DNA of 37,097 nucleotides from a virus (Duplodnaviria; Heunggongvirae; Uroviricota; Caudoviricetes), in the IMG/VR virus record IMGVR_UViG_2563366877_000001. One strand, written 5' to 3'. The number at the start of each line of letters is the position of its first letter. The stretch's first letter is position 1. The notes under the pieces were generated by a model. It worked only from the letters and a program-made list of their open reading frames with translations. It did not search any database and was not told where the DNA came from. Made by a program: the position numbers and the translations under genes. This document shows, piece by piece, positions 5,933-20,913 of the stretch.

Positions 5933-6229
5933 TTATACCTCTGAATCAATATCAACCTGGTGGTGAGCAATGGTTTCAACCATGTACCGGATGTGTTCTG
6001 CCATGCGCTCCTGAAACTCAACATCGTCATCAAACGCACGGGTAATGGCTTTTTTGCTGGCCCCGTGGCGTTGCAAATGATCGATGCATAGCGATTCAAA
6101 CAGGTGCTGGGGCAGGCCTTTTTCCATGTCGTCTGCCAGTTCTGCCTCTTTCTCTTCACGGGCGATCTGCTGGTAGTGACGCGCCCAGCTCTGAGCCTCA
6201 AGACGATCCTGAATGTAATAAGCGTTCAT
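5933..6229 (-). CDS. gam: host nuclease inhibitor Gam (short form)
   Basis: 98 aa, [21 protein letters not shown]...; AGGAG Shine-Dalgarno 7 nt upstream; in-frame stop 14 codons upstream excludes a long form. Confidence 0.95.
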
Positions 6230-6292
6230 GGCTGAACTCCTGAAAATATCGCCCGCGAAATGCCAGGCTGATTAGGAAAACAGGAAAGGGGA

Positions 6293-6670
6293 TTAGTGAT
6301 TGAGGCCGTTACCGCGTCCGTCGAGAAAAACTTCCACGAGCAAATCACGGGTATAAGTGCGCTCGATGCCGCGATGCAGATAAAGCCGTCCGCGTAAATT
6401 AGCTGATGCAGTCCAGGTACCATCTTTGTGTTTGACCAGCATTCCTGGCATGACCGCACCGCGATTAACGGTCTGCGTTCCGTAATGTTGATGAACCATA
6501 AAAACTCCTGCCCGTAAGCTGGGCTGCTGAACATATAGAGACTTCTGCGCGTATTCAGGCGGTGGATGGCCGCCGGTTGTCATAACTAAGCCGCCTCGTT
6601 GAAGCGACTGAGGTATAAAGTGTTGTGTTGATTTCAGCTGGTCACACCGACGTTCACGCGTCCGTTTCAC
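6293..6670 (-). CDS. hypothetical protein, first ORF after the putative pL; arginine-rich N-terminus (possible N-like antiterminator)
   Basis: ORF-track frame 6293..6703 begins at a TTG with no Shine-Dalgarno; start proposed at GTG 6670 (GGGGAG 8 nt upstream), giving N-terminal VKRTRERR... resembling the arginine-rich motif of N proteins. Start and function uncertain. Confidence 0.3.
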   Translation of the reverse strand: MKRTRERRCDQLKSTQHFIPQSLQRGGLVMTTGGHPPPEYAQKSLYVQQPSLRAGVFMVHQHYGTQTVNRGAVMPGMLVKHKDGTWTASANLRGRLYLHRGIERTYTRDLLVEVFLDGRGNGLNH

Positions 6671-6720
6671 CCCTCGCACTCCCCGAAGCCTGCTGAAATT
6701 CAAACTGCGGATCTAAGCGG

Positions 6721-6772
6721 TCATCGCAACGGTGAAACAGGTGGTTACCGTATCGTTGTGTCGTTGCGATGA
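6721..6772 (-). promoter_or_regulatory. long leader hairpin upstream of the first leftward ORF
   Basis: Perfect 11-bp inverted repeat TCATCGCAACG (6721-6731) and CGTTGCGATGA (6762-6772) with a 30-nt loop, about 50 nt upstream of the proposed GTG start. Confidence 0.4.
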
Positions 6773-6784
6773 ATTTATTTAAAA

Positions 6785-6850
6785 CTATAGTTGTTTTATC
6801 GTCAACAACAAAAGTTGTTTTGTCGGTTGTTTTAAATATAACTGGTTGTA
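6785..6850. promoter_or_regulatory. putative OL operator cluster / pL region
   Basis: Clustered GTTGTT/AACAAC inverted repeats (GTTGTT 6790-6795, AACAAC 6804-6809, GTTGTT 6814-6819, GGTTGTT 6825-6831) sharing the half-site seen in the cI-cro intergenic palindrome. Confidence 0.4.
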
Positions 6851-6979
6851 TTTAGGATGGATTTATTTTGTGACTTGCATCGCATAGCGATAACTGAAGT
6901 GAGGTGTGGTGGTTTTTTGGACGGTATGAGTTATGAGGGGGAGGAAAAGAAAACCCGGCGCGGTTGCCGGGTATGATTA

Positions 6980-7360
6980 TCAGTCAGCCCAACCTGATTT
7001 CGAGTTTATTTGGGTTTCTGACATTGTGTATTTCTTAATCGTGTCATCGTTAAAAAGAATAGTAAGTTCTTTTTTCGTACCGTTCGTTCCATTATGGAAT
7101 AATCCATAGAATGGAATAAAAGTGGTGCCATTAACTTTTACTTTTGCAAAGGCGTACTTCCAGATCTCGTTTCCACTGTCAGTATAGGAAACAGCATCAG
7201 GAGAACCAAAGTAAGATTTAACCTCATTCTTGGTTGTTTTACCTTCCTGAAGTTTAGACTGGACACTAATTTCAGTTTCATTTTTGAGTTGCTGGTTGCC
7301 TGAAGAAGCACACCCAGCCAATACAGATGCCATCATGGCAGCGATTAGGATTTTTCTCAT
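6980..7360 (-). CDS. lipoprotein (moron in immunity region)
   Basis: 126 aa with signal peptide and lipobox (MRKILIAAMMASVLAGC); TATAAT about 20 nt upstream of its ATG; lies between the putative OL/pL and cI. Confidence 0.7.
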   Translation of the reverse strand: MRKILIAAMMASVLAGCASSGNQQLKNETEISVQSKLQEGKTTKNEVKSYFGSPDAVSYTDSGNEIWKYAFAKVKVNGTTFIPFYGLFHNGTNGTKKELTILFNDDTIKKYTMSETQINSKSGWAD

Positions 7361-7589
7361 TTTATGTTTCCATTCATTATAATCAGAAACATCTTAACAT
7401 AATGATTCGAAATAAAAACCGCTACGAGATAGGGGGACATTTTGCTGACAGTAGCAACAAATCTCAGCTAACAACGAGAATATTTACTGAAATATGCAAA
7501 CAGATTTGGCGTTCTTATAGAGAATTTAGTGCAATATCTAATCCGAGTGGTATAAACCTTAACCTTCGCTCCCTTAAGTCGTAGATAAA

Positions 7590-8279
7590 TTAACCATGCT
7601 TCCTGTACGTCTGCGGCATGCTTCCAATGACCTTACCGAATATGAACACCCGGTTCATCTCGTCTTTCTCGATCGGGTCCCACGGCGAGTAGCTCTTGTT
7701 ATCAGAGATAACCAGCAGCTTATCCTTCATCATTTGAAGACGTTTTACATGGGCAGTGTCGTCGTACAGAAACGCATAGATGCCATCACCGTCGAAAGAT
7801 TTAACAGTGATATCAACGAACAGCAGGTCACCTGGTTCGATCGTCCCTGACATGCTGTCACCTCGCACGTTAATGATGCGGATATTTTCCGCCTTCCTGC
7901 CATCGAACATGTGACGAGCATCGTCAAACGAGTACTCAACCGAGCGTAGAACTTCTACAAACTCACGGTTGATTACACCTGGCCCGGCACTGACTTCTAT
8001 ATCAAGAACGTCAATTTTGAAGTATTTGGAATGGCTGACAGTTGATTGTATTGGTTGCACTGTACTGTCTGACATATTTCCAACGCCAGAAGATAACCAT
8101 TCTGCGCGCACACCCAAAGCGTTCGCGATCTCCACGATTTTAGTTGTTTGGTTAGCTTTCCCTGTTTCGATTTTCTGAATAGCAGCCTGGCTAACCCCGA
8201 CCAAATCCCCAAGCGCCTTTTGTGTAAGGCCTCGCGCTAATCTGGCTTCTTTAAGTCTTTCTGAGAGTGTTGTTTTCAT
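7590..8279 (-). CDS. cI: CI-type repressor (HTH_XRE plus S24 LexA-like peptidase domain)
   Basis: 229 aa; N-terminal helix-turn-helix (LTQKALGDLVGVSQAAIQKIE) and C-terminal RGDSM...K autocleavage motifs; divergent from cro. Confidence 0.9.
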   Translation of the reverse strand: MKTTLSERLKEARLARGLTQKALGDLVGVSQAAIQKIETGKANQTTKIVEIANALGVRAEWLSSGVGNMSDSTVQPIQSTVSHSKYFKIDVLDIEVSAGPGVINREFVEVLRSVEYSFDDARHMFDGRKAENIRIINVRGDSMSGTIEPGDLLFVDITVKSFDGDGIYAFLYDDTAHVKRLQMMKDKLLVISDNKSYSPWDPIEKDEMNRVFIFGKVIGSMPQTYRKHG

Positions 8280-8320
8280 AGATCAAATGTACAACCAAGG
8301 TTTTATTTCATCAAACGAAA

Positions 8321-8345
8321 ATGGTTGTTGACTAAAAACAACCAT
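8321..8345. promoter_or_regulatory. OR operator palindrome overlapping a pR -35 hexamer
   Basis: ATGGTTGTT-gactaaa-AACAACCAT, perfect 9-bp arms; TTGACT at 8328-8333 inside it; cro ATG at 8384 with GGAGG Shine-Dalgarno. Confidence 0.5.
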
Positions 8346-8383
8346 AGTTTTAATCTTGATTCGGATTAACCACGGAGGTTGTT

Positions 8384-8614
8384 ATGAACCCAGCAATCAA
8401 AACAGCGATCAATATCGTTGGTTCACAAAAGAAACTAGGCGATGCCTGCGAAGTTTCACAGCAGGCCGTCTATAAGTGGCTTCACAACAAAGCAAAGGTA
8501 TCCCCTGAACATGTCGGCAGCATTGTTACGGCTACTGGTGGAGTTGTGAAGGCATACCAGATTCGCCCGGATCTTCCGAAGTTGTTTCCACACACCGAAA
8601 AGAACGCAGCTTAA
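8384..8614 (+). CDS. cro: Cro-like repressor (YdaS-family HTH)
   Basis: 76 aa, divergent from cI across the operator region; HTH segment resembles YdaS/Cro proteins. Confidence 0.75.
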   Translation: MNPAIKTAINIVGSQKKLGDACEVSQQAVYKWLHNKAKVSPEHVGSIVTATGGVVKAYQIRPDLPKLFPHTEKNAA

Positions 8615-8683
8615 ATTTCCATTTCACGCTCTTTAACAATAAGCAATCAACTTAACAGTCAATTCAAACTAAAGGAGTCAATT

Positions 8684-11253: not shown

Positions 11254-11748
11254 ATGAGAAAATTTATTTTAGCCTTTGTTATAAGTGCCTCGTTTACAGC
11301 AAATGCTGGTGTAGAGAAGTTAGGGCCGTGGATAACAAAGTCTGAGATAAATAAAATGACTGACCAGACTGACTTTGTGGCTCTTAATTTATCACCAGAT
11401 TCATATAACAAAGCAGGTACTGATCGTGCAACTTCACTGGTGTTGCGTTGTAGTGATAACAAAACAGATGCCTATTTATCATTCAATGATTATATGGGTT
11501 CGGACAACCCAAGAATTACAGTGCGGTTAGATGGCGGAAAGCCGGTCAAGAGTGTTTGGGGAGGTGGGGAAGGCGGTGATTCTGCATTTGCTCCACAACC
11601 AATACAATTTATAAAGACCTTGGCTAAGCATAAAAAAGCTATTTTTGGGTTTGAACCTTATGGATCAACTATGCAAGTAGTTGAGTTTGACTTGTCTGAG
11701 ATTGATAAGGTTGTGGAAAAAATTTCACAGTCTTGCAATTGGAAATGA
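11254..11748 (+). CDS. exported hypothetical protein (moron)
   Basis: 164 aa with cleavable signal peptide (MRKFILAFVISASFTANA); AT-rich codon usage unlike neighbours; followed by a terminator. Confidence 0.6.
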   Translation: MRKFILAFVISASFTANAGVEKLGPWITKSEINKMTDQTDFVALNLSPDSYNKAGTDRATSLVLRCSDNKTDAYLSFNDYMGSDNPRITVRLDGGKPVKSVWGGGEGGDSAFAPQPIQFIKTLAKHKKAIFGFEPYGSTMQVVEFDLSEIDKVVEKISQSCNWK

Positions 11749-11767
11749 CAAAAAAATTTCATATGAA

Positions 11768-11790
11768 CCCAGTTGGCGCTGGGTTTTTTA
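11768..11790 (+). terminator. rho-independent terminator
   Basis: CCCAG-ttggcg-CTGGG stem-loop followed by TTTTTT directly after the exported-protein gene. Confidence 0.6.
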
Positions 11791-12791
11791 TTTCAGTAGC
11801 CAATAATGCATTCAAAATCTCTTACTTGAGAAACGGCCTATTTGAGATTTCAGTCGTGGCAGGATGATCAGTTGATTCGAGTATTGACGCATTTGCGTTC
11901 GGAGCGATTACAGTAGATTGTAAATAATAATGAGAAACACATAGCCACATAGCCACCCCGTGGTATTGAAACCATATAATGTTGGATTTGAAAACAGATC
12001 TTTTCCCATGTATTAATAACTACATCCCCGCGAGTAATTCAAAAAGGAGGGCCCAATTTTGTCCGAGTTTTTGTATTCCCCCGCATGCCGCTGCGGAGCA
12101 CTACATCTGAGTGTCTGACTAGGGGATAAAATTAGACTGGATAGTGAGAAGAAAGTGGCGCGCTAGGCTGTGCCGAGTGCTACCAGTACACCTTGGGGGT
12201 GTGCAGCTTTCGCCGAGACTGTAGTGGGTATCGGTTAATGCACGAAAAACCGAGAGGTCAGACAACCAATTTGCCGTAGGATTGTTTCCGGTGCGATACC
12301 GGTCTACTAACTGAAAGCAATGCGAAAAAGCATAAACTCGGTCCTTCAGTCGCCCTACACACTATTTACTAAGAAGGGCTGAAGCATGGATACAATTATT
12401 ACATGGATGGGAGATCGTCTGTTGGGGGGACACAAAAATCCGATCTGCGGCAGATGGCGATCACTGGATTAACTTCCGCGATTTGTTCAACAATTTTGTA
12501 CACTGAAAAATTAAAACATGGTGAGCCTATTAACCCAAACGAAGAAGAAAAACTTTATAGGCTTTGGTATGAAGGAAACGCTTGAAAGAATAAAGCACAA
12601 TTAAAACCTTTGATTTGCGATAATCAACTTGCCATAATTAAGTAATCGGAGCCTGAACAACTCCGGTGACTTCTGCGCTAAACGGGGACGTTTATGCGCA
12701 CATACAATCCAAACTATCTTCTCCTTTCACAGATGCAGAAATGCACCTGCAATTCTTTGCATCTAGCGTTTGACCTCTGCGGAGGTGAAGC

Positions 12792-13247
12792 GTGAACCTC
12801 CCACAAGACGGCATCAAATTACATCGCGGCAACTTCACCGCTATCGGCCAGCAGATCCAGCCTTATCTGGAGGAAGGCAAATGCTTTCGCATGGTGCTTA
12901 AACCGTGGCGCGAGAGACGCAGTCTTTCCCAGAATGCACTCAGCCACATGTGGTACAGCGAAATCAGTGAATACCTCATCAGCAGGGGTAAAACGTTCGC
13001 CACTCCAGCTTGGGTAAAAGATGCTCTCAAACACACATATCTCGGTTATGAAACCAAAGACCTGGTTGATGTCGTAACCGGTGATATCACCACTATCCAG
13101 TCGTTACGCCATACCTCCGATCTTGATACCGGAGAGATGTATGTCTTCCTGTGTAAGGTTGAAGCCTGGGCGATGAATATTGGTTGCCACCTGACTATTC
13201 CACAGAGCTGCGAGTTCCAGCTGCTGCGCGACAAGCAGGAGGCGTAA
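12792..13247 (+). CDS. ninB: NinB-family recombination protein
   Basis: 151 aa with the R-S-L-x-Q-N motif shared with lambda NinB; GTG start with GGAGG Shine-Dalgarno. Confidence 0.7.
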
Positions 13248-17393: not shown

Positions 17394-17687
17394 TTATTGT
17401 GAGCAATACACCCGCGCTTCCAGCGGAGTATAAATGCCTAAAGTAATAAAACCGAGCAATCCATTTACGAATGTTTGCTGGGTTTCTGTTTTAACCACAT
17501 TTTCTGCGCCGCCACAAATTTTGGCTGCATCAACAGTTTTCTCCTGTCCAATTCCCGAAACGAAGAAATGATGGGTGATGGTTTCCTTTGGTGTTACTGC
17601 TGTCGGTTTGTTTCCAACAGTAAACGTCTGTTGAGCACATCCTGTAATAAGCATTGCCAGAGCGGCAGAAAACAACATTTTTTTCAT
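17394..17687 (-). CDS. bor: Bor lipoprotein (serum-resistance moron)
   Basis: 97 aa from MKKMLF...; matches lambda Bor (ITGCAQQTFTV...EARVYCSQ). Confidence 0.9.
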   Translation of the reverse strand: MKKMLFSAALAMLITGCAQQTFTVGNKPTAVTPKETITHHFFVSGIGQEKTVDAAKICGGAENVVKTETQQTFVNGLLGFITLGIYTPLEARVYCSQ

Positions 17688-18212
17688 CTTATTATCCTGC
17701 ATTGTTAAAAACGGCAGAATCCTATGTGACAACAATTAAACGATAGTTAAATGGATTGATGAAAATTAAAACTATATAGGTGTACGGTCAGACTATTGGA
17801 GGTAGTCAGGATTTGAATGTCAGTCTGTTGTCGGCATTCTGGCAATGCAATTTGGATAAAGCGGGGATTAAAAAGATAGAGGCGAGCCGGTCAGGTAGAA
17901 ATGAATCAGGCTCAAAGTGAAGCGGAAAAGGTCTGTGGTACAAGCTGATGCAGCCATAATTACAGCCTGATGATTTGTGGAATGAAACATGTTGAACCTC
18001 CTTAATTGATGTTATTCGAGTGATGAAGGCATTCTGTCCTTCTATAGTGTCCAGTAAATCAAACAGGAAACTTGTCCAACGTGTTGGACAAGCCTCTCCA
18101 TTAGTGAGTTGTATTGATCACAACTCTACAAAGAATTCATTACTGGGTAGATGAAAATAGTTTCACGATGAATGGAGGAGGCTATGTCGGTGGCTTCTTC
18201 ATTGGAGTACAT

Positions 18213-18563
18213 ATGCCATCACGAATCCCAAAAGCCTGCCGTGTTCGTGGCTGCCGCCATACCACCACAGACCCGTCAGGCTATTGTGAAAGCCACAAAA
18301 GCGAAGGCTGGAAGCAATACAAGCCAGGACAATCCCGTCATCAGCGCGGTTATGGTTCGAAGTGGGATGTTATCCGCGTGCGTGTGTTGAAGCGTGACAA
18401 AGGACTGTGCCAGTTGTGCCTGCGTGCCGGTGTGGTGCGTGAAGCGAAAACCGTTGACCACATCATCCCTAAAGCGCATGGCGGCACTGATGCCGACAGT
18501 AATCTGCAGAGTCTGTGCTGGCCGTGTCATAAGGCGAAGACGGCCCGTGAACGGTTGAAGTAA
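18213..18563 (+). CDS. HNH endonuclease (terminase-associated)
   Basis: Cys-rich zinc-binding HNH motif (CQLCLRAG...VDHIIPKAHGG...CWPCHKAKT); GGAG Shine-Dalgarno before ATG 18213; precedes the terminase genes as in HK97-like phages. Confidence 0.8.
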   Translation: MPSRIPKACRVRGCRHTTTDPSGYCESHKSEGWKQYKPGQSRHQRGYGSKWDVIRVRVLKRDKGLCQLCLRAGVVREAKTVDHIIPKAHGGTDADSNLQSLCWPCHKAKTARERLK

Positions 18564-19183: not shown

Positions 19184-20913
19184 GCCGGAAATCTTACCCC
19201 AACGTAAATGCTGCAAATCAGTATGCCCGGGATGTCGTGCGCGGAAAGATTGTTGCCTGCCAGTTTGTGATTCAGGCCTGCCAGCGCCATCTTGATGACC
19301 TGATGGCGGAAAAAAGTAAGTCGTTTCGTTACCGCTTCGACAAGGACCTGGCTGAACGGGCCGCGAAATTTATTCAGCTGTTGCCGCACACCAAGGGGGA
19401 GTGGGCATTCAAACGGATGCCCATCACGCTGGAGCCGTGGCAGCTATTTGTGATCTGCTGTGCGTTTGGCTGGGTCAATAAAGGCACCCGGTTGCGCCGC
19501 TTCCGGGAGGTGTACACCGAAATCCCCCGTAAGAACGGCAAATCAGCAATCTCTGCCGGTGTTGCCCTGTATTGTTTTGCCTGTGATAACGAGTTTGGCG
19601 CGGAAGTGTATTCCGGTGCCACGACAGAGAAACAGGCGTGGGAAGTCTTTCGCCCGGCGCGACTGATGTGTAAACGCACACCCATGCTGACGGAAGCGTT
19701 CGGGATTGAGGTTAACGCCTCAAACATGAACCGTCCGGAGGATGGCGCGCGGTTTGAACCGCTGATCGGCAACCCAGGTGATGGTTCATCACCCCACTGT
19801 GCCGTGGTTGATGAATATCACGAGCATGCCACCGATGCGCTTTATACCACAATGCTTACCGGGATGGGGGCGCGACGTCAGCCACTGATGTGGGCCATCA
19901 CCACCGCCGGGTACAACATTGAGGGGCCGTGCTACGACAAGCGGCGGGAAGTCATCGAGATGCTCAACGGCTCGGTGCCTAACGATGAACTGTTCGGGAT
20001 CATCTATACCGTTGATGAAGGTGACGACTGGACCGACCCGCAGGTGCTGGAAAAAGCCAATCCAAATATTGGCGTGTCGGTTTATCGCGAATTTTTGTTA
20101 AGTCAGCAGCAGCGTGCGAAAAATAACGCCCGTCTGGCAAACGTCTTTAAAACAAAACACCTCAATATCTGGGTGTCGGCGCGTTCGGCGTATTTCAACC
20201 TGGTGAGCTGGCAGAGCTGCGAGGATAAATCACTGACTCTTGAGCAGTTCGAGGGGCAGCCGTGCATTCTGGCCTTTGACCTGGCGCGTAAGCTGGATAT
20301 GAACAGCATGGCGCGACTTTATACCCGCGAGATTGACGGTAAAACGCATTACTACAGTGTGGCCCCGCGTTTCTGGGTACCGTATGACACGGTGTACAGC
20401 GTCGAGAAAAATGAAGATCGCCGGACAGCCGAACGCTTTCAGAAATGGGTGGAAATGGGCGTTCTGACCGTTACCGATGGTGCAGAGGTGGATTATCGCT
20501 ACATCCTCGAAGAGGCCAAAGCGGCGAACAAAATCAGCCCGGTCAGTGAGTCACCCATCGACCCTTTCGGAGCGACCGGGCTGTCACATGACCTTGCTGA
20601 TGAAGACCTGAATCCCGTTACTATCGTCCAGAACTTCGCCAATATGTCCGACCCGATGAAAGAGCTGGAGGCAGCGATTGAATCGGGACGCTTTCATCAT
20701 GACGGCAATCCCATCATGACCTGGTGTATCGGCAATGTGGTCGGCAAAAACATGCCAGGTAACGATGATTTAGTGAAGCCCGTCAAAGAGCAGGCGGAAA
20801 ACAAAATCGATGGTGCAGTTGCGCTGATTATGGCGGTTGGCAGAGCCATGTTGTACGAGAAAGAAGACACGCTGTCTGACCACATTGAGTCCTATGGGAT
20901 CCGCTCGCTTTAA
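19180..20913 (+). CDS. terminase large subunit
   Basis: 577 aa with ATPase Walker-type and nuclease regions typical of HK97-type large terminases. Confidence 0.92.

Follow-up and report, generated by a model that had tools for sequence, protein, structure and literature searches.

The immunity region of an Escherichia prophage carries, between the cI repressor gene and the terminator of cI, an inserted gene for a lipoprotein of 126 amino acids, which appears to share the fold of the outer membrane protein assembly factor BamE without being BamE. As far as found, it is an uncharacterised lysogenic-conversion lipoprotein of prophages, whose BamE-like fold has apparently not yet been linked to phage exclusion in the literature found. 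Its best-favoured role, argued from analogy and given a probability of roughly 0.4, is that of a lysogen-expressed protective factor which modifies the envelope. The window (the whole stretch of 37,097 nucleotides that was analysed) shares 99.8% identity with Escherichia phage PhiR26_1 (PV340555.1), and its coordinates equal those of that record plus 1795. PhiR26_1, a lambda-like siphovirus, has lambda-type genes for the head, the tail, and recombination. The record begins at the integrase, and the coordinate offset places positions 1-1795 of the window to the left of this start; given this left extension of 1795 bases, the window presumably comes from a lysogen chromosome and positions 1-1795 are presumably host flank. 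A full-text literature search returned no functional study of the lipoprotein family and no paper describing PhiR26_1.

The lipoprotein gene lies on the minus strand at 6980..7360, stop codon included, exactly where the sequence-only reading had placed it. It starts with ATG and begins MRKILIAAMMASVLAGC (MRKILIAAMMASVLAGCASSGN), and the record PV340555.1 annotates the same open reading frame as ‘hypothetical protein / putative lipoprotein.’ The signal peptide comprises residues 1-16, with a basic MRK n-region, a hydrophobic core, and the lipobox L-A-G-C; the codon of the lipidation residue, Cys17, is read from the window sequence at 7310-7312 (minus strand), which leaves a mature protein of ~110 amino acids. 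In E. coli, the residue at position +2 after the lipidated cysteine sets the sorting of lipoproteins by the Lol system. This residue is alanine here, not aspartate, and the lipoprotein is hence expected in the outer membrane.

The gene is real and strongly constrained, far beyond a chance open reading frame. Comparison with enteric homologues gave dN values of 0.10-0.20 with saturated synonymous sites and an omega below 0.07. The protein belongs to the SEN1984 family, PHROG 3135 (function unknown), which it matched at an E value of 2.9e-48 over residues 1-124 against profile positions 1-114 of 114. A set of 5.8 billion proteins contained 228 homologues, most of them 70-89% identical and from Citrobacter, Enterobacter, Cronobacter, Leclercia, Kluyvera, and Serratia; a second, profile-based search of that set added little beyond these close relatives. 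An exhaustive search produced 1332 homologue clusters at 50% identity, typically of 125-135 amino acids, and a lipobox was present in 125 of the best 150 among them. The gene is also common, being found in prophages of many Enterobacterales genera. Its exact protein sequence occurs on at least 1000 public contigs. Of 5426 complete E. coli genomes, 69 have the cassette with at least 99% identity, in each case on the chromosome and adjoining the repressor gene.

The placement of the gene between the OL/pL operators and cI, on the cI strand, is likewise as first described. The cI repressor (7590..8279, minus strand; HTH_3 and Peptidase_S24 domains) is the upstream gene of the lipoprotein's transcription unit. 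The OL operators with a leftward pL-like promoter (6779..6855, minus strand) are of the 17-bp AAAACAACnATAGTTTT type and are mirrored at OR (8291-8353). The window has only two copies of this 17-bp operator, which are inverted relative to each other (6781-6797 and 8335-8351), and further operator-like repeats connect the two regions. The pL-like hexamers, TTGACG-17-TTAAAT at ~6807-6779 on the minus strand, mirror TTGACT-17-TAATCT at OR, both pairs being read by eye. The order along the minus strand is thus pRM, cI, a spacer of 229 nt, the lipoprotein gene, a terminator, OL/pL, and the leftward early genes, which is the arrangement cI-rexA-rexB-tIMM-OL of lambda. The interval between the repressor and N is a documented site of accessory genes, occupied by rexAB in lambda and by bstA in BTP1, where bstA is transcribed from the cI promoter (PMC7067206). 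An Rfam scan across 6600-8400 found nothing credible. The first open reading frame downstream of pL (6293-6703, minus strand), named ‘Kil’ in PV340555.1, sits at the lambdoid N position. Its N-terminus, RGVKRTRERRCDQLKS, is rich in arginine and resembles the RNA-binding motifs of N-type proteins; the reading frame matched no Pfam family, and no N gene is annotated in PhiR26_1.

The lipoprotein gene is followed by an intrinsic terminator at 6943..6972 (minus strand; ACCCGGC-AACCGC-GCCGGGT, then TTTCTTTTCC), which begins 7 nt past the stop codon with a stem at 6972-6953 ahead of the T-tract, and equivalent terminators are also present 3' of the homologues. In the alignment with PhiR34_1, the sequence is common through OL and this hairpin, continues for ~90 bp, and then reaches the 3' end of cI. 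Since the hairpin follows cI in PhiR34_1 without the lipoprotein gene, it is the terminator of the immunity operon, and the segment of ~620 bp at 6973..7594 (minus strand), which comprises the cassette and the spacer, is an insertion between cI and its own terminator. Both flanks are common to PhiR26_1, PhiR34_1, and Turner, and the latter two lack the lipoprotein cassette and have ~90 bp in place of the segment. The cassette has a GC content of 36-38%, lower than that of cI (47%) and of the window (51%). Presence or absence between collinear relatives, an own terminator, and atypical base composition are all marks of a moron, and the cassette, which consists of a conserved leader, the open reading frame, and the terminator, is a moron inserted between cI and the cI terminator.

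E. coli genomes show the same site in several states. When it is empty, the same flanks span ~1156 bp with nothing between them; when it is occupied, it holds the lipoprotein cassette (the 69 genomes above) or a different cargo. For example, the same cI/OL flanks in E. coli LD91-1 (L086, 1900-2619) enclose two genes on the cI strand, of 147 and 87 amino acids, neither of which matched a Pfam family. The cI/OL site in E. coli is a polymorphic cargo hotspot. The proposal that a moron occupies the slot of lambda rexAB is borne out by this alternation among an empty site, this gene, and other cargo, and by the bstA gene of BTP1 in the same place (PMC7067206). In one Cronobacter prophage (L018), the cassette stands between two directly repeated copies of the same intrinsic terminator, CCCGGCCACCGAGCCGGGTTTTTT (~5960-6000 and 6395-6425). 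Such hairpins common to both sides suggest that terminators serve as recombination points by which the cassette moves.

The lipoprotein gene had also been credited with its own TATAAT element. The element is present, although it is not a conserved promoter element. It lies inside the palindrome ATTATAAT (7376..7383, both strands) and therefore reads on both strands; on the gene strand TATAAT runs from 7381 to 7376, 15 nt before the ATG, and the homologues have ATTGCAAT at this site, with TTGCAAT for TATAAT. Being unconserved, palindromic, and too near the ATG for the transcript to hold a ribosome-binding site, TATAAT was rejected as the promoter of the lipoprotein gene. The best sigma-70-like match of the region, TTCTCA-18-TATAAT at 7354-7383 (10/12), is on the plus strand; it uses the same palindrome, overlaps the start of the lipoprotein gene, and points antisense into cI.

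A better promoter candidate, from its sequence and conservation, is the putative extended -10 element TGTTAAGAT at 7391..7399 (minus strand), which has the form TGnTAAGAT and lies 31 nt upstream of the ATG. In the homologues, it opens a leader block of 33 nt, TGTTAAGATGnTTCyGATTGCAATCAATGGAAA, directly 5' of the ATG. The block is kept in Salmonella phage S107 and in prophages of Citrobacter, Enterobacter, and Cronobacter with 82-91% identity to the window, against 44-52% at third codon positions. In seven of eight contexts, the intrinsic terminator of the upstream gene stands directly 5' of the leader block, which implies that those homologues need a promoter of their own. A start from TGTTAAGAT would leave a leader of ~24 nt with GGAA. 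The -35 region of this candidate is poor in the window, and a promoter scanner called no minus-strand sigma-70 site there.

The spacer from the cI stop to the lipoprotein start (7361..7589, minus strand; 229 nt) showed no convincing terminator, and the hairpin found upstream of the homologues has decayed here to a remnant (...GTAGCGGTTTTTATTT), so read-through from cI is likely as well. Its part at 7400-7592 had no relative among deposited phages except PhiR26_1 itself. An imperfect inverted repeat of 27 nt, 74% complementary, extends at 7361-7418 over both the leader and the promoter candidate. When transcribed by read-through from cI, this region can fold at -17.8 kcal/mol and cover the ribosome-binding site, whereas a short transcript starting near 7385 is unstructured and has no such hairpin. 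As a conserved regulator, this hairpin was rejected: its complementarity is specific to the E. coli variant and is not found in the homologues.

Databases name the lipoprotein ‘outer membrane protein assembly factor BamE’ and, in NZ_AP045810.1 (PGAP), ‘SEN1984 family lipoprotein.’ The label BamE is an over-annotation. The Pfam model of BamE (PF04355) scored 21.8 bits (E 1.6e-4), under its gathering score of 23.2; no BamE model of NCBIfam matched at E≤1, the only matches being of the N-terminal signal-peptide type and far below cut-offs, and the searched library held no HMM named ‘SEN1984 family lipoprotein.’ BLASTP against the sequence of E. coli BamE gave 24% identity (E 0.016). A profile comparison with BamE gave a probability of 92%, and the family profile reached an E value of ~0.03 against BamE chains of the PDB. 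BamE nevertheless has the nearest fold, and no other relative is detectable by sequence. The confidently predicted fold shows the alpha-alpha-beta-beta-beta order of SmpA/OmlA, and the best viral structure matches are the SmpA/OmlA lipoproteins of the Pseudomonas phages PP9W2 and B3. A single-sequence search of the PDB found only a signal-peptide artefact, apolipoprotein E, and the likeness to BLIP and BtiO is at the level of the fold only, with 11-18% identity.

Two features set the lipoprotein apart from BamE. The segment RPDINQGNY near the N-terminus of E. coli BamE contacts BamD; both hhalign and BLASTP placed a 7-residue gap opposite this segment, with no equivalent motif in the lipoprotein. 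In turn, the lipoprotein has an insertion of 14 residues relative to BamE (77-90, NGTTFIPFYGLFHN), which is invariant among the enteric homologues, has low model confidence, and gives a conserved aromatic loop, FIPFYGLF. The gene is also encoded by a prophage, in addition to the host's own bamE. A bona fide BamE was accordingly rejected on the Pfam score and the missing RPDINQGNY segment. The lipoprotein is no orphan; it is best described, from sequence profiles and the structure model, as a remote paralogue with the BamE/SmpA-OmlA fold, belonging to a large family whose distant members are chromosomal. SEN1984 itself is an uncharacterised lipoprotein of the excisable island ROD21 of Salmonella Enteritidis (PMC10655114, PMC3198454), for which Phyre2 also predicted a BamE-like structure (PMC10655114).

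The genomic contexts of the relatives differ with their distance from the window. Among close relatives (70-89% identity), the gene was downstream of and co-oriented with a repressor gene in all 16 contexts that were looked up, namely five from Citrobacter, five from Enterobacter, three from Cronobacter, and those of Salmonella phage S107 and two sister phages. The repressors were of the Peptidase_S24 type except in one Citrobacter context (L004), where the repressor has 155 amino acids and Phage_CI_repr/HTH_3 only. The gene follows the repressor directly or comes after other cargo, either a 302-aa unknown protein or an NYN-domain protein, and the surrounding replication and recombination modules vary. 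The homologues of Serratia prophages (71% identity) and of Klebsiella phage RAH1 (47%) occupy a second slot, immediately upstream of the tape-measure gene and after variable cargo; a terminator and a -10-like element of the TGn type come before them. A genome scan with an alignment of 13 closer sequences covered 20 enterobacterial species representatives, in which ~5 loci were linked to a repressor and ~5 to a tape-measure gene; the group at 50% identity among them had non-phage neighbours.

Two small open reading frames accompany the homologues. In the Serratia prophages (L015-L017), the lipoprotein gene overlaps by one base a 95-aa reading frame (6381-6668) that lies before the tape-measure gene, has a signal-peptide-like start, MKKKLSGIIILSLGFISLSSAAS, and lacks a Pfam match; the two may form a two-gene envelope cassette. 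Likewise, prophages of Citrobacter, Enterobacter, and Cronobacter (L004-L013, L018, L020) have a conserved 63-74-aa reading frame, ~30-130 bp downstream (e.g., 8413-8619 on the minus strand of L004) and converging on the lipoprotein terminator, which matched no Pfam family and is absent from the window.

Outside Enterobacterales, the neighbours of distant relatives (35-50% identity) are ordinary chromosomal genes. For example, a homologue of 40-44% identity (~6001-6378) lies between atpG and atpD, which encode the gamma and beta subunits of ATP synthase, inside the atp operon in four Moraxella species (L062, L065, L072, L082) and in an alphaproteobacterial metagenome-assembled genome (L063); the atp operon is an odd location for a lipoprotein gene. 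In Pseudovibrio, the homologue is beside pheST. Judged from these sequences, the enteric phage clade seems to be a branch captured from a lipoprotein family of cells, and because the distant members are chromosomal genes, the ancestral role would have been cellular and not anti-phage.

Five properties favour a protective factor of the envelope: the place inside the repressor transcription unit, the autonomous cassette, the recurrence in two phage slots known for exclusion genes, the predicted outer-membrane lipoprotein, and a fold that is used across the envelope as a protein-binding module. The position inside the cI transcription unit points to expression from the repressed prophage. The cassette would be transcribed in the lysogen from the TGTTAAGAT promoter, by read-through from pRM/cI, or by both; the precursor would be lipidated at Cys17 and delivered by Lol to the inner leaflet of the outer membrane. 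There, the BamE-like domain, including the FIPFYGLF loop, would bind a conserved component of the host envelope and not a phage protein, as the near-invariance of the clade across genera argues for a conserved host partner over a fast-evolving phage protein. The likeliest benefit would be protection of the lysogen's envelope through a block of the adsorption or DNA entry of other phages, functionally analogous to Cor/Llp and to gp15 of HK97. Superinfection exclusion by a lysogen-expressed protein, as first suggested, stays plausible by analogy, and phage exclusion specifically is offered as a tentative assignment. That the lipoprotein acts as a BamE mimic, which docks on BAM or another conserved beta-barrel partner through its aromatic loop and changes which outer membrane proteins and which phage, colicin, or CDI receptors are assembled or accessible, is a speculative and rather improbable extension.

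Known systems provide the analogies as well as their bounds. Cor (phi80, N15, HK022) and Llp (T5) are likewise small phage-encoded outer-membrane lipoproteins and are thought to act periplasmically on a host outer membrane protein. Both block the phage's own receptor, FhuA, whereas the gene described here is present in phages whose receptor-binding domains are unrelated. In the PhiR26_1 J protein, the last 200 residues are 94% identical to J of phage 434, which uses OmpC, and 46% to J of lambda. The J protein of S107 is homologous to that of PhiR26_1 only over the first ~840 residues, and the two phages have lipoproteins that are 82% identical; a block of the phage's own receptor was therefore rejected. 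The stated lack of resemblance to T5 Llp holds, since neither Llp nor Cor was among the PDB or BFVD fold matches and the match to Cor (PHROG 1119, E 0.066) was limited to the signal peptide. Homology and structure searches gave no similarity to Cor, Llp, or Rex and a remote relationship to the BamE fold.

The moron gp15 of HK97 is an exclusion gene in the slot between the chaperone and tape-measure genes and is derived from YebO (PMC3594210). Equipped with a promoter and a terminator of its own, gp15 is a classic moron, its slot is that of the Serratia and Klebsiella homologues, and its origin in a chromosomal family resembles the one that the lipoprotein appears to have; its product is an unrelated inner-membrane protein, in contrast to the outer-membrane lipoprotein predicted here. 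Similarly, lambda rexAB and BTP1 bstA share the cI slot and are transcribed with the repressor in lysogens, a logic like the one proposed for the lipoprotein, but they are abortive-infection systems of the cytoplasm or inner membrane without homology to this single exported lipoprotein. The search with PADLOC defence models, RexAB included, returned no family at E≤1. Lambda Bor is also an outer-membrane lipoprotein moron expressed from the prophage, unrelated in sequence and location, and it provides serum resistance, being a factor of host fitness rather than of exclusion. Further accessory genes of PhiR26_1 on the minus strand are PD-lambda-1 (defence; 11485-12987), an OmpD/NmpC-like porin gene downstream of Q (17411-18508), and bor (20284-20577), and the genes for Lom and an omptin are located outside the window.

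Several findings count against the protective role, namely the missing likeness to Cor, Llp, or Rex, the missing PADLOC match, the missing linkage to a receptor type, the chromosomal distant relatives, the poor -35 region in the window, and the ribosome-binding site that can be sequestered in a read-through transcript. A possible alternative, which we hold to be the less expected one, is a moron for host fitness or virulence, independent of phage exclusion. As a BamE paralogue it would act, like lambda Bor or Lom, on outer-membrane biogenesis, on envelope-stress signalling, or on the tolerance of the lysogen to serum and stress; the lipoprotein might, for instance, assist or modulate the assembly of beta-barrel proteins. 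This agrees with BamE as the nearest fold and sole sequence-detectable relative, with the chromosomal nature of the distant relatives, with the family member SEN1984 in the pathogenicity island ROD21, and with the strong purifying selection, which fits a conserved host partner. The porin, Bor, Lom, and omptin genes in PhiR26_1 also fit, as with this cargo the prophage adds several outer-membrane proteins to its host. However, the family is 7 residues short at RPDINQGNY and has no counterpart to it, the Pfam score for BamE misses the gathering threshold, E. coli already has bamE, and both slots of the phage-borne clade are known for exclusion genes.

The same BamE/BLIP-type domain could instead act as a periplasmic inhibitor or immunity protein which neutralises a T6SS effector, a bacteriocin, or a tail-associated muralytic enzyme (cf. 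BLIP/BtiO, PMC12541434). This is improbable, as no toxin gene was adjacent in any context examined and the likeness to BLIP/BtiO does not extend beyond the fold. Immunity proteins in arms races usually diversify, unlike this clade, which is nearly invariant across genera.

Also improbable is a function in the lytic cycle, in which the protein would inactivate receptors on debris like T5 Llp or aid envelope events at lysis, its neighbourhood with cI being incidental. The homologue of Serratia and Klebsiella does lie inside the late tail operon and adjoins the tape-measure gene, but even there the terminator and the TGn-type -10-like element precede it in the manner of a moron. Moreover, in the lambdoid contexts the gene shares the strand of the repressor and lies opposite to the lytic operons, early and late, and outside them, and close relatives dispense with it. 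A non-functional passenger or mis-called reading frame is effectively refuted by the conservation data, i.e., the dN/dS below 0.07 with saturated synonymous sites and the full-length conservation across many genera, and by the confident fold prediction.

The protective role of the lipoprotein concerns a common prophage gene which is routinely mislabelled as housekeeping BamE and which occupies the two phage slots best known for exclusion genes. If it is a generic fitness lipoprotein, the gain would be mainly a corrected annotation. As a one-gene candidate, it could add a new class of envelope-acting prophage factors. If the lipoprotein touches the BAM machinery, phages would manipulate the outer-membrane biogenesis of their lysogens, and a BamE mimic, if true, would give the lysogen a broad, receptor-independent exclusion by a route not yet described for prophage genes.
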